Notes under the pieces: generated by a model | What the model was told of the DNA's origin: nothing | What the model saw: the letters and a program-made list of their open reading frames with translations, nothing else | Database searches by the model: none | Translations under genes and position numbers: made by a program | Shown: positions 1 through 24,701 of the stretch, piece after piece | Numbering within the stretch: position 1 is the first letter of the stretch | Layout: the number at the start of each line of letters is the position of its first letter | Origin: a virus | Lineage: Duplodnaviria; Caudoviricetes | Virus record (IMG/VR): IMGVR_UViG_3300017757_000139 | Span: 1-25,200 of that record | Reading direction: 5' to 3' (one strand) | DNA: 25,200 bases

Positions 1-705
1 GTCAACAATCTCATCCTGACCAAATACTCCTTGCTCATAGAATCCTGAAATTTTAAGTACCACTCTGCTCATTGCTCTCTTTTCTGCCATAGCAACAGGG
101 AACTTCTTACCACCTCCCATTAAGTTATTGTCAGATGCTTCACCAAAACTCATAGCGTTCTTAACCTCATTACCAACTTTCATTGATGCTGCTGCTCTTA
201 ATACGCATATTCCTTTTTCTATATCCATATTGATTACTTCATAGGCAACTGTAATATTGTTTCTTGATACAATCTTATCAATTCCAGTTCTTGTGATAAT
301 TACAAACCCTCTCTTGTCTTTGTAAATATCTTCTTCTACTAAACCATTCTCTTTGTAAAGCCTTCTTAAAGCCTCTTTTCTTGTTTCCACTATTGGCTCA
401 GGTTGTTTCTTCAGTTTTTCTTGCATTGTTTTTTTTGTCATTTTATTATTTAATTGATTAATACTCGGTTGTTGTGCAATATCATGCATTGCGTTAATTG
501 TTTCTTCTCTTTCTTTCATAAATTCTTCTTTCATTCTTCCCATTTTTTCGTTTTTTTCGTTAATAGTTTCAAATTTATCTTCTGTCTTGTTGTAACAGTA
601 TTGTTCATCATCTCCCCTGTAGTATCTATCTCCAAAGTTTAAATCAGTCCTACTGTTCTCATCTTCCATAATGCCATCTTCAAAAATTCTGTCTGCTATG
701 CTCAT
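1..705 (-). CDS. Probable ssDNA-annealing protein (Rad52/Redbeta/Sak-like superfamily), 3' end cut by window edge; alternative starts at 543 and 441
   Basis: Not in the ORF track. My translation is open for 235 codons from ATG 705 to base 1. The C-terminal MAEKRAMSRVVLKISGFYEQGVFGQDE resembles the helix-G-x-Y/F-xxDE motif of Redbeta/RecT-like annealing proteins. A strong promoter lies directly upstream. Confidence 0.6.
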   Translation of the reverse strand, partial: MSIADRIFEDGIMEDENSRTDLNFGDRYYRGDDEQYCYNKTEDKFETINEKNEKMGRMKEEFMKEREETINAMHDIAQQPSINQLNNKMTKKTMQEKLKKQPEPIVETRKEALRRLYKENGLVEEDIYKDKRGFVIITRTGIDKIVSRNNITVAYEVINMDIEKGICVLRAAASMKVGNEVKNAMSFGEASDNNLMGGGKKFPVAMAEKRAMSRVVLKISGFYEQGVFGQDEIVD

Positions 706-736
706 AATTGTTTATTGTTTTAGTTATTAATTGAGG

Positions 737-767: not shown

Positions 768-903
768 AGATTTTTAACAATTTTTAGATAAATGTTTACC
801 TACTAGGTTAAAATTATTATATTGAGAAGAATAAAACTATTATAATTAATAGAATATAGAACAAAGATAGTTTAGTTGAATCTTTTATTTTCATTATAAA
901 ACA

Positions 904-1995
904 TTAAAAGTAATGCACTAAACGAGCCACTTGTCCACTTGTTTTTTCATGCAAAAATCCTTCAACTGCTTTAGGAACTCCAACATATCCTTTTCTTGAG
1001 TGCCAACTATCAGTTCCTGATGGACTACGCATATACTCTACAGTAACTCCTATAAAGTCTTTAGCATCTAGCCACTTATGTTTAACTTTGTGATGTAAAT
1101 GATGTAGATACCAATATCTATATTTAGTTTCACTCCACATTACTGGTTTCTCCTGAGCCATCATTAAAGGTAAGTTTGCCATCTTAGCACCATCTCCATG
1201 CTCTAATCCAATTAAGTTCTTACCATACTTATAATACTTTCTATGTGCTACACTAATATCAAAAGTAATATCTCTGTCGTTTCTAAACCAACTCTTTAAT
1301 GCGTGTGCCAAATGAAATCCACTTTGGTAATCATGATTAGACATTGAATGAACAACATCTACAGGTGCTACCTCTCTTAATATTTCTATACACTTAACAT
1401 ATAGTGCTAATGCAACCTCAAAATGTTCCCACCACTTACCATCTACATCTTGACCTGTACCTGCTGTAGTTTGATTATATACATTATCTATATGTAAAAC
1501 ATCATTACCTATGCAAAATAATATCCTTTCTACCTCAAAGCCATCTGCCTTATATATAAGTCCTTCTAAGCCCTCTAAAACACGCATACAGGCAGTTTCA
1601 ACATCATACCCATCACCAGTTTCAACTCCATTAGCATATTTACCTATATGTATGTCTGCAGGATTTATTACTAATAGATGATTAGCATCTTTGTTATCTC
1701 TTTTTACTGAAGGGTAATAAGGTGAATGATTTTCAATGAAGCCACTAATCTTATCTAGCATATCATTTTCATTAGCATTTATATCCTCTTTGGTTACAAT
1801 ACTAAATCTGTATTCACCACTTGCAGATTGCCAATGCTTGACACTTACAACATCATCTTTCTTTATACCCCTATCTGCAAGATGTATGTCTAATGCTGTA
1901 TTTCCATTAATGTTTGTTGTGCTTTCTGCCCTGTTCTCATAAACCATCTCAACTTCTTCTTTAGATAATCTAAGTCTTTTGCCATATTTCTTCAT
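904..1995 (-). CDS. Calcineurin-like metallophosphoesterase
   Basis: 363 aa with ordered motifs ADIHIG, GNDVLH, SNHD, HGD and HHLHH, matching the DxH / GDxxD / GNHD / H / GHxH pattern. Confidence 0.85.
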   Translation of the reverse strand: MKKYGKRLRLSKEEVEMVYENRAESTTNINGNTALDIHLADRGIKKDDVVSVKHWQSASGEYRFSIVTKEDINANENDMLDKISGFIENHSPYYPSVKRDNKDANHLLVINPADIHIGKYANGVETGDGYDVETACMRVLEGLEGLIYKADGFEVERILFCIGNDVLHIDNVYNQTTAGTGQDVDGKWWEHFEVALALYVKCIEILREVAPVDVVHSMSNHDYQSGFHLAHALKSWFRNDRDITFDISVAHRKYYKYGKNLIGLEHGDGAKMANLPLMMAQEKPVMWSETKYRYWYLHHLHHKVKHKWLDAKDFIGVTVEYMRSPSGTDSWHSRKGYVGVPKAVEGFLHEKTSGQVARLVHYF

Positions 1996-2046: not shown

Positions 2047-2082
2047 ATACAAAAGTGAGATGTTTTTAAACATCCCACTCTT
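2047..2082 (-). terminator. Intrinsic terminator ending the late/lysis operon and the candidate sRNA
   Basis: AAGAGUGGGAUGUUU-AA-AAACAUCUCACUUUU forms a long stem with two G-U pairs and runs into a U-rich tail (UUUUGUAUU). Confidence 0.8.
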
Positions 2083-2129
2083 GAAAACTATAAACAATGA
2101 AAACAAAGATAGGCACAACCCTACCTGTG
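2047..2129 (-). ncRNA. Candidate small regulatory RNA (5' hairpin, U-rich anti-start-codon region, terminator)
   Basis: Downstream of TATCTTTGC (2142-2134). It contains the hairpin AGGUAGG-GUUGUG-CCUAUCU (2126-2107), then UUGUUUUCAUUGUUUAUAGUUUUC, then a terminator. The G-U pairs in both stems form only on the minus strand. Confidence 0.5.
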
Positions 2130-2133
2130 TTAT

Positions 2134-2142
2134 GCAAAGATA
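2134..2142 (-). promoter_or_regulatory. Bacteroidota -7 promoter element
   Basis: TATCTTTGC, identical to the element at 744-736, lies immediately after the stop of the 93-aa membrane gene. No canonically spaced -33 TTTG is present (nearest TTG at 2168-2166). Confidence 0.55.
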
Positions 2143-2143
2143 A

Positions 2144-2425
2144 TTATTTTTTACAATTATCAGTACAATTACATTTATTTTTTTCAAATACAGAAAAACA
2201 TAATGGCAAAACACCTAACCCTGTAAGTATTAAAGCGTTAGTATCAATACCATTTTTCTCAATGTATAAACTAGCAGCAAGTACTATCACTCCACTAATG
2301 GTTCTTTTGCTACTCCATTTACCTTTAGTGTCTGTAAAAAGTTCTTTTACTGCTTTTAATAATTCTGCTATTGGCTTTACACCACCCTTTAGTAGTGCTT
2401 GACCTATCCATTTCTGTATCATCAT
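2144..2425 (-). CDS. Two-TM membrane protein, holin candidate
   Basis: Two hydrophobic segments (ISGVIVLAASLYI; ALILTGLGVLPLCFSVF) and a basic C-terminus. It lies in the lysis cassette with an ATGA overlap to the upstream gene. Confidence 0.6.
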   Translation of the reverse strand: MMIQKWIGQALLKGGVKPIAELLKAVKELFTDTKGKWSSKRTISGVIVLAASLYIEKNGIDTNALILTGLGVLPLCFSVFEKNKCNCTDNCKK

Positions 2426-2583
2426 TTCTTCTTGTTGTACTTAGGAACAATAGCATCAATCATTGTATCTAACCATCCAAAGATTTTGTTGTCTTTTTCT
2501 GTTGGAGTTAAATTAGTAACAACTTTCGCAAAAGCCATTATTCCAACCAATAATTCTAGCCAATTTTCTGTAATAAAATTCAT
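2422..2583 (-). CDS. Small membrane protein, holin-like (53 aa)
   Basis: Not in the ORF track: MNFITENWLELLVGIMAFAKVVTNLTPTEKDNKIFGWLDTMIDAIVPKYNKKK. It has an N-terminal hydrophobic helix followed by TPTxKD, and lies directly after the endolysin. Confidence 0.7.
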   Translation of the reverse strand: MNFITENWLELLVGIMAFAKVVTNLTPTEKDNKIFGWLDTMIDAIVPKYNKKK

Positions 2584-2612
2584 AATATATATTTAATTAG
2601 TTAATATTCTGT

Positions 2613-2972
2613 TTAGTAACCCCAAATACAAGGGTTTGTTTTTTCCTCATCACAATCAGTATGTATAAATTTGTTTTTAAAATCTATACCAAATCTTTCA
2701 AATCCTGCACCTCCTAATCCTCCCATTATTAGTGCTAAGTTTTTACCATCAGTAAAATGTATATCAGCAGCAATACCTTTTATATGAGATGAGGTTGGAT
2801 TTTTCTTAGATAGTGGATGGTTTTCACATCTAAAACCACTATTTATTCTGAATGGAACTCCTGCAATTCTTCTTGCCTTATCCATCATTTCTAAGAAATC
2901 ACTATCAGTGTAGTTTGTATTACAACCACACTTACAATTAAACTCACTTCTTTTAAAGTATTTTAATTCCAT
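2613..2972 (-). CDS. Endolysin, Zn peptidase M15 (Peptidase_M15_3-like)
   Basis: Motifs YFKRSEFNCKCGC, INSGFRC, SSHIKGIAADI (SxHxxGxAxD) and FIHTD. The start is re-called at ATG 2972, 1 nt after the upstream stop (119 aa). Confidence 0.9.
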   Translation of the reverse strand: MELKYFKRSEFNCKCGCNTNYTDSDFLEMMDKARRIAGVPFRINSGFRCENHPLSKKNPTSSHIKGIAADIHFTDGKNLALIMGGLGGAGFERFGIDFKNKFIHTDCDEEKTNPCIWGY

Positions 2973-24438: not shown

Positions 24439-24676
24439 TATTATATGTATCTATAAATATTGGGGTTTTTTCTCCAACATAACAATTTATTGTATTGTAG
24501 TAAAAAAAATCTTTTGCTTCTTGATAGTCCATACCATCTCTCAATAACGAATCTATACACTTATCAATATCGTAAACAACTATCACCTCTCCATCTCTTT
24601 GGCAAGTTCCAATTATAGCATCATCAAAGCCATCAGCAATTAAACAATCATTTTCTTCTAATATTTCTTTTATCAT
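24422..24676 (-). CDS. Conserved hypothetical phage protein
   Basis: ADGFDDAIIG ... VVYDIDKC ... EAKDFFYYN ... YVGEKTPIF, a family I recognise from aquatic phages; function unknown. Confidence 0.75.
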   Translation of the reverse strand: MIKEILEENDCLIADGFDDAIIGTCQRDGEVIVVYDIDKCIDSLLRDGMDYQEAKDFFYYNTINCYVGEKTPIFIDTYNNERRK

Positions 24677-24701
24677 CTTTTATAGTTTTAGTTAATTTTT
24701 C

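Follow-up and report, generated by a model that had tools for sequence, protein, structure and literature searches.

A conserved small-RNA-type element at the end of a phage lysis cassette, predicted to pair with the start regions of the phage's own early genes

Plasmid copy-number antisense RNAs of the ctRNA/CopA kind are cis-encoded, fully complementary to their target and repress the mRNA of the replication initiator. In Bacteroidota, whose mRNAs lack Shine-Dalgarno (SD) pairing, the small RNAs GibS, FopS, MasB and BatR are described as pairing near start codons, which for GibS and FopS of Bacteroides results in repression (PMC7366714, PMC11697453). Initiation in Flavobacterium is reported to be promoted by adenines at positions -3, -6, -12 and -13 (PMC6847099). 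As for phages, a precedent exists in the C4 RNA of P1 and P7, whose targets are specific to the phage (PMC5320573), and one of the above sources mentions a Bacteroides phage that has FopS (PMC11697453). Beyond that remark, a search that covered mostly the main text of articles free of subscription gave no self-targeting RNA of such kind in Bacteroidota phages. Here we describe an element encoded by a phage that by prediction acts in a similar way, on the phage itself.

The DNA analyzed (the window) is a 25.2-kb phage fragment in which almost every gene is found on the minus strand. Along this strand the order is terminase, tail, tape measure, Clp protease, portal, M15 endolysin, two small hydrophobic ORFs, the RNA element, a nuclease/phosphoesterase-type gene and the start of the early region. 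The window stops short of the replication-initiator gene; near-complete genomes of its kin measure 32–37 kb. The features relevant here are the following.

703..721, minus strand: leader of the gene that opens the early region, equal to the core mirror image at 14 of 15 bases, weak predicted binding (-7.8)
904..1995, minus strand: nuclease/phosphoesterase-type gene (phrog_704), downstream of the RNA element
2047..2131, minus strand: predicted small RNA gene of ~85 nt, both ends putative
2050..2083, minus strand: terminator-like hairpin of 15 bp (fold; covariation)
2084..2106, minus strand: unpaired core of 23 nt, the predicted pairing region, with a GUUUUCAU segment and a UUUAUAGUUUU segment (conservation; predicted duplexes)
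2107..2126, minus strand: 5' hairpin of 7 bp with loop GUUGUG (fold; covariation)
2135..2142, minus strand: promoter -7 box TATCTTTG of Bacteroidota type, one base past the stop codon of the upstream ORF
2144..2972, minus strand: lysis cassette, upstream of the RNA element (family searches)
2144-2425 and 2422-2583, minus strand: two small hydrophobic ORFs, holin-like by position and hydrophobicity only
2613-2972, minus strand: M15 peptidase endolysin of the lysis cassette
24674..24689, minus strand: leader and AUG of an 84-aa gene before the terminase genes, best predicted target within the window (-13.3 kcal/mol)

The host is likely a marine member of the Flavobacteriales, to judge from the TAnnTTTG-type boxes, the A-rich leaders without SD, the matches of the nuclease (the best cultured ones, at 48–51%, are in Elizabethkingia and Flavobacterium phages) and an outer-membrane-protein-like gene in one of the kin (L064:9165-9557). 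The latter adjoins the lysis genes, has relatives in 69 of 401 Flavobacteriales genomes, all of 0.8–2.1 Mb, and may be a host marker or an exclusion gene. Family searches gave no match for the two small ORFs of the lysis cassette. No PF00589 (tyrosine) integrase was found in any of the five kin records that are at least 94% complete, neither an integrase nor a clear repressor was found among the 36 ORFs of kin record G002, and there was no antiterminator among the proteins scanned.

The genomes hold other recurrent features, several of them around the nuclease gene, which is preceded by a promoter-like box of its own. A 25-codon hydrophobic ORF (MKIKDSTKLSLFYILLIIIVLFFSI; 817-894, minus strand, in the window), by its look a small membrane peptide, recurs after the nuclease gene in L002, L027, L279, L321 and L326, which represent several phage groups. 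The nuclease leader of L201, L202, L216 and L295 contains three copies of TTGAAACTGCT about 30 nt apart between the promoter box and the ATG (at about 9900-10000 in L201 and L202). G-rich repeats of the GGGGGTA type are located just 5' of the VRR-NUC gene in L027 (16250-16306), L060, L075 and G005, in genomes that are otherwise AT-rich. Lastly, AAAGAT repeats together with AACCCTTA/TAGGGT inverted words follow the nuclease stop codon in L188, L195, L212, L238, L240 and L247; they stand before the first early promoter and look origin-like.

Starting at 2142 the minus strand reads TATCTTTGC, of which the first eight nucleotides (2142-2135) form the box, which we take to be a Bacteroidota -7 promoter element (consensus TAnnTTTG). 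The box, the 7-bp 5' hairpin, the unpaired core and the terminator hairpin that the first-pass annotation had placed on this strand were all located, with the small correction that the C at 2083, formerly read as the last base of the core, is the first base of the terminator stem. The RNA formed by 2047-2130 folds stably on the minus strand (-29.4 kcal/mol, z -6.4, reached by 0 of 200 shuffles), compared to -16.7 kcal/mol on the plus strand (z -3.2, 1 of 200 shuffles). Both hairpins score as terminator-like. The 15-bp hairpin (2083-2050) had been described as a strong terminator, but its strength can only be presumed, since the U run is short and partly within the stem; the late/lysis transcript would stop there too. 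Neither the TAnnTTTG box (52 copies vs. 41 expected, 9 of 100 shuffles) nor the leader match to the core (4 vs. 1.6 expected, 10 of 100 shuffles) exceeds chance when the window is taken by itself, and the support for both comes from the relatives. That no described family covers the element agrees with the Rfam search, which gave no match at gathering score over the window and, around the element, 17 weak matches down to E 10, none of them to FopS, GibS or C4. A collection of annotated phages returned just six chance matches of 25 bases in Klebsiella phages.

The evidence that the element is under selection comes from its relatives. Using the nuclease as query, we examined the best 80 of 501 matches (clade 1) and found the whole element in 75 of them, the other five being cut by contig ends. 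A second query with a 71% relative added 78 loci, 55 with a diverged unit at the same place, 21 (from other phage groups) without it and two cut; the P0122 query gave just one unrelated locus. Altogether there are 134 loci of about ten types and 69 distinct variants, once four false loci (L256-L259) had been excluded from the 138 of the unit finder output and L013 and L018 had been re-anchored. The finder demands a promoter box, so the presence of the box in 69 of 69 variants is no test of its conservation. The models R1 and R2 and the generic scan detect one unit per locus. The candidate small-RNA gene at the end of the lysis cassette, proposed from the window alone, is conserved in close and diverged kin.

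Over 66 clade-1 regions, identity to the window was 99.5% at 2081-2094 (the 3' half of the core), 97% in the box, 94% in the terminator and 93% at 2095-2105, vs. 61% in the adjoining spacer and 68–72% at third codon positions; the unpaired core is better conserved than either stem. Among 43 distinct clade-1 variants, six of 21 pairs change on both sides, a number reached in 0 of 500 shuffles, a control in which the kinship among variants is still in. Three of these are among the six counted pairs of the 5' hairpin and three among the 15 of the terminator. In 28 clade-2 variants the terminator covaries in seven of 14 pairs and the 5' helices do so more weakly, so that stem covariation, proposed beforehand as a check, is seen in both alignments. 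The RNA strand folds better than its complement in all 69 variants. Two words are almost invariant, UAGUU 5' of the terminator (67/69) and GUUU(U)C (65/69); of the conserved CAU core that had been expected, these words stand, but the CAU itself does not, as it follows GUUU(U)C in just 40 variants. Conservation, covariation and strand asymmetry in the relatives take the element beyond chance, and we are highly confident that it is selected and of small-RNA type.

Beyond these clades, model R2 had no match among 77 partial loci of sister phages (L275-L351), though L295 bears a unit of a third type. Model R1 gave only weak matches in the sister-phage loci (best E 0.04), the two best shown being on the opposite strand and the third being L295. 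The generic scan matched 12 of 15 carriers, six of 95 sister-phage loci (partial) and none of 19 host stretches. With few candidates analyzed per genome, 151 Flavobacteriales genomes gave R2 a single match, to an ordinary terminator that follows a gene, and R1 had none in five. Matches to the clade-2 pattern in metagenomes amounted to 29. In the sister groups L275-L351 a holin-like gene and one of two different phosphoesterase genes are joined in one operon that leaves no space for an RNA. Like units were seen at L269:3446-3546 and L267:918-1005, in contigs binned as Flavobacteriales and Woesearchaeota genomes; that of L269 is placed after the nuclease gene and has no match to its six own downstream starts.

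We also considered the opposite strand, where an antisense ORF of 101 codons (2097..2402, plus strand) had been named beforehand as the finding that would explain the leader-like sequence. A frame of 101–115 codons is open in the nearest kin and reaches at least 60 codons in eight of 69 variants. However, the ATG is missing in 25 of 69, the frame from 2097 varies from 1 to 115 codons (most below 20) with frameshifts right behind the ATG, a TAnnTTTG box is found on the plus strand in one of 69 and the family search of the ORF gave no match. We have rejected it as a gene, and that the ATG at 2097 is a true gene start is largely refuted, with hardly any probability left.

Contigs from RNA libraries (8 of 19 listed runs) cover the region. 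Three of them, from three studies, stop at the terminator, X13 (2064-2278), X14 (2084-2334) and X12 (from 2074), a coincidence of ends that is weak without a DNA run. Contig X2 runs through, and X1, X3 and X10 have pieces on both sides. A discrete transcript cannot be shown with contigs of this kind.

In the kin, AAAAC[AT]AT, a mirror motif of the core, is present at 132 of 593 distinct starts from the nuclease onward vs. eight of 477 late starts. The shorter AACTA occurs in 39% of 273 early leaders of carriers and in 11% of 227 late leaders, with 14% of 397 early leaders in sister phages without a model match and 10% of 233 starts in one Flavobacteriales genome as controls; the groups compared are similar in A content, and as the phages are related their counts are not independent. 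AACTAA is strongly strand-biased (224 vs. 33), and 107 of the 224 copies lie at most 35 nt before an ATG, a zone that makes up 8.5% of the sequence. The 16-nt mirror image of the core with the AUG included, AAAACTAWAAACAATG, is found on the coding strand of 20 of the 80 clade-1 loci; the three that were checked (L027, L033 and L002/L378) have it at the start of the initiator gene. Within L188-L493 it is absent except for L378, a second copy of one of the 20, and among all 493 loci no other phage group and no host stretch has it.

Co-folding of 17 RNAs with 529 start regions (ViennaRNA cofold and duplexfold) gave a consistent picture. Own early starts outbind own late starts in 12 of 15 testable genomes, with no such preference in L075, L223 and L269. 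The 70 cognate duplexes at -12 or better span about -25 to +10 and include the AUG in 47 cases, in keeping with the proposal of a single strand complementary to A-rich leaders plus AUG. The predicted duplexes are rich in A-U pairs and of modest strength, with -13 to -17 kcal/mol in clade 1. A promoter box is present at just 12 of these 70 targets, and 47 lie within 35 nt of the previous ORF. Testing each RNA against its own genome, the replication initiator (phrog_270/19658) is the top predicted target in 20 of 40 clade-1 loci; in 21 loci of other kin it is poor (median -8.1) and a peptidase-like gene comes first in 14. The RNA unit and the initiator gene are ~3.8 kb apart on the same strand in the kin. 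For the late families up to 3 kb upstream, median binding never falls below -6.4, and the start of the nuclease gene is predicted to bind at a median of -7.1 in clade 1 and -3.2 in clade 2. In G005, a 99% kin record, the strongest predicted partner of the window RNA among 50 starts is the initiator (-16.6), and the six best are all early or middle genes. In a sliding scan of two records, six of the top 25 sites in each were starts, vs. 4.5% of the scan steps in G005. When the alignments are scored by nothing but identity, there is an excess of C-to-T mismatches, which would be G-U in the duplex (60/143, p 0.0007). The second wobble class, A-to-G, does not reach significance (p 0.16), and transitions that give no wobble pair stay at the background level.

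RNA and leaders moreover vary together by phage type. By eye, the L064 core and the first early leader of the same genome are mirror images over 18 of 18 bases, long or rare words are common to RNA and own leaders in L238 and L202, and in clade-2 leaders the two RNA segments are both mirrored, with their order as expected for pairing. In a double-centered matrix of eight types and 13 genomes (the window, L201, L267 and L269, with fewer than 10 early starts, were excluded) the own-type cells have a mean of -3.0 kcal/mol at early starts, reached by one of 40,320 permutations, and by one of 720 when permuting only within two broad blocks. These counts are not independent, types and leaders being related by descent, and own type is the best partner in just five of the eight. 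The control matrix of late starts gave +0.2 kcal/mol (28,097 of 40,320 permutations), and 17 composition-keeping RNA shuffles 0.0 ± 0.4 vs. -1.7 for the real RNAs. A ninth type (39 loci), found after the test, had a mixed out-of-sample outcome: its predicted target pattern is present in three of 493 loci, all of that type, one match being a gene start and two lying within a gene. Both non-self near matches of L460 precede ORFs, one of them exact over 17 nt, and there are three further near matches in L456 and L475. In the sequences, the complementarity is group-specific and specific for early genes. The first-pass annotation had seen in the core the match to a generic host leader; what it matches, group by group, are the phage's own early and middle leaders.

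The best reading of these data is that the element probably acts in trans, as an antisense repressor of early leaders in the phage itself. The minus strand from 2142 to 2047 would give a trans-acting antisense RNA of ~85 nt, produced from its own host-type promoter from entry onward, from the 3' end of the lysis transcript late in infection, or from both. The unpaired core would pair with leader and AUG of several early and middle mRNAs, in clade 1 chiefly that of the replication initiator. As the predicted duplex spans the adenines at -3, -6, -12 and -13 and the AUG, ribosome loading would be occluded in the cell and translation likely blocked. Late mRNAs, with leaders mostly lacking the motif, would be left free, and superinfecting kin with the same leaders may be shut out. 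Output from both RNA sources would increase with the number of phage genomes, in line with a brake on replication and early genes. The most likely role, although less certain, would be a negative feedback that grows with copy number and with late transcription. That no tyrosine integrase was found in the near-complete kin, and no integrase or clear repressor in G002, favors a role in the early-to-late transition or in exclusion over one in lysogeny. A more far-reaching version, which we put forward tentatively, is an RNA-only master switch in which AACUA/AAAAC plus AUG act as a leader “barcode”, one RNA from the lysis end shuts off replication and early translation and excludes phages of the same barcode, and RNA and barcode diverge together into immunity-like groups.

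Several observations count against the antisense reading: RNA contigs that lie on both sides or run through, modest duplexes, a window that lacks the initiator gene and whose first early leader binds weakly, three genomes without the early-over-late preference, own type as best partner in just five of eight types, starts at just six of the top 25 scan sites, the non-significant A-to-G class, the mixed ninth type and the common descent of types and leaders. A shared leader style could also have another cause, and some host starts (rpsG-like and fusA-like genes) bind too. Instead, the RNA could act mainly on host mRNAs whose starts are strong and A-rich, such as those for ribosomal or outer-membrane proteins and perhaps for the receptor, in the way that FopS silences SusC; the early genes would then match only because they copy strong host leaders. 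The best host matches include an rpsG-like start (-13.7) and, with the L202 RNA, a fusA-like one (-17.8), an outer-membrane-type gene in G098 bears a AAACTATAAA leader and FopS-like sub-threshold units exist in eight of 151 Flavobacteriales genomes. However, at -12 or better we found 1–2% of 220 host starts vs. 9–12% of carrier early starts, and the clade-1 pattern appears 10 times in five candidate host genomes (8.1 Mb; six times in the reversed control) vs. two non-self occurrences in the 32 kb of G005, an indirect comparison as the hosts are candidates. The preference for the own genome is also unexpected if one host set drives the core, and we consider host silencing unlikely. That same preference bears on a U-rich strand serving as decoy for a protein (an RRM protein of the RbpB kind or bS1), with complementarity as a by-product of U-richness: RbpB is described as binding single-stranded AU-rich RNA including FopS and GibS (PMC11697453), and GUUUUC and UAGUU are almost invariant, but shuffled RNAs of the same composition lose the preference, late leaders are equally A-rich and show none, and protein binding as a chaperone is compatible with the antisense reading. 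A decoy seems quite improbable.

Another alternative is a promoter-terminator unit or tandem terminator of the lambdoid PR'-tR' kind, which would only end late transcription or throttle the nuclease gene without trans action, or a cis anti-leader on the next gene. The terminator-like score of both hairpins and, weakly, the three RNA contigs that end at 2064-2084 point this way, and such short RNAs are described as by-products in lambdoid phages (PMC7547250). Against this, the core is conserved above either stem, the gene that follows is served by a promoter-like box of its own and is seldom a good target (1/40 clade-1 loci and 0/21 others at -12 or better), and the like unit of L269 lies after the nuclease gene, not before it. 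We consider a unit without trans action very improbable. Finally, the core might be an inverted DNA site for a phage protein that binds before early genes too, as the same words are present at both places and three of five records have weak HTH matches, below cut-off. Here the strand bias of the motif, its position at start codons mostly without a promoter box, the enrichment in G-U-type mismatches and the covariation of the flanking stems as RNA all argue to the contrary, and we give a DNA site very little credence indeed.

If trans repression of early leaders is true, a phage of a host without SD pairing controls a whole gene class post-transcriptionally, one RNA reading a shared early-leader motif. 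The about ten natural RNA-leader pairs could be combined into cognate and non-cognate sets in a laboratory Bacteroidota, so that the rules for occluding a start site that has no SD would become directly testable, and the element may explain timing or superinfection exclusion in widespread uncultured marine phages. The first-pass annotation knew of no described family; the mechanism itself is already described, in the pairing of GibS, FopS, MasB and BatR near start codons (PMC11697453, PMC7366714), and the novelty would reside in its self-targeting, many-gene and co-varying use.

Compared with known systems, the closest likeness is to FopS (RF04319) and GibS of Bacteroides thetaiotaomicron, described as having their own promoter, a single-stranded U-rich seed, a terminator and start-codon pairing on mRNAs without SD. 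The element has the FopS layout in its sequence, with a canonical promoter and a single strand followed by an intrinsic terminator. The clade-2 copy of L212 has GUGUUUU(U)CAUAGUA in common with the FopS seed, and FopS is its best Rfam match (28 bits, E 0.0096), below the gathering cut-off of 56 bits that none of five records passed; the window copy has no FopS match down to E 10. In the description of FopS, the R1 seed (GUGUUUUUCAU...) is the unpaired 5' end; clade 2 has GUGUUUUC(AU) inside a 5' hairpin and the window copy has UUUGUUUUCAU after a hairpin. Differences from FopS as described are the 5' hairpin, one copy per genome (FopS is multicopy) and predicted targets in the phage rather than in host PUL genes. 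The likeness of the seeds may reflect descent or convergence on the start-region consensus, between which the sequences do not distinguish. Among the eight of 151 Flavobacteriales genomes with FopS-like units below the family cut-off are G048 (L383:1455-1570) and G035 (L381:1490-1570); the L383 unit, in a chromosomal intergenic region, consists of a box, a GUUUUUUCAU segment, UUAGUU and a terminator.

With C4 of P1/P7, as it is described, the element shares being a phage-encoded trans RNA of ~80 nt over the ribosome-binding region of phage mRNA, with specificity set by variable single strands and, by prediction here, targets that depend on the phage. It has two hairpins instead of the three-stem C4 fold with a' and b' loops, no C4 match in Rfam and many predicted targets through a shared leader motif. 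C4 is described as belonging to a lysogeny/immunity region and as processed by RNase P. In the kin no PF00589 integrase was found (5/5 records), so that a lysogeny role is not supported. StxS and the lambdoid PR'-tR' RNAs are likewise short promoter-terminator transcripts by the lysis region that can act in trans (PMC7547250). StxS is described as preceding the late genes, arising from antitermination control and binding Hfq (PMC7547250), while our element follows the lysis genes; a PR'-tR' RNA precedes antitermination-dependent genes, and the next gene here has its own promoter-like box. That a small RNA would repress the mRNA of a replication initiator, as predicted here, recalls the ctRNA/CopA kind, but the element is encoded ~3.8 kb from the initiator in the kin, on the same strand, with imperfect pairing to several genes. 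By prediction it works like FopS/GibS, C4 and StxS, and appears to be a member of none of them.
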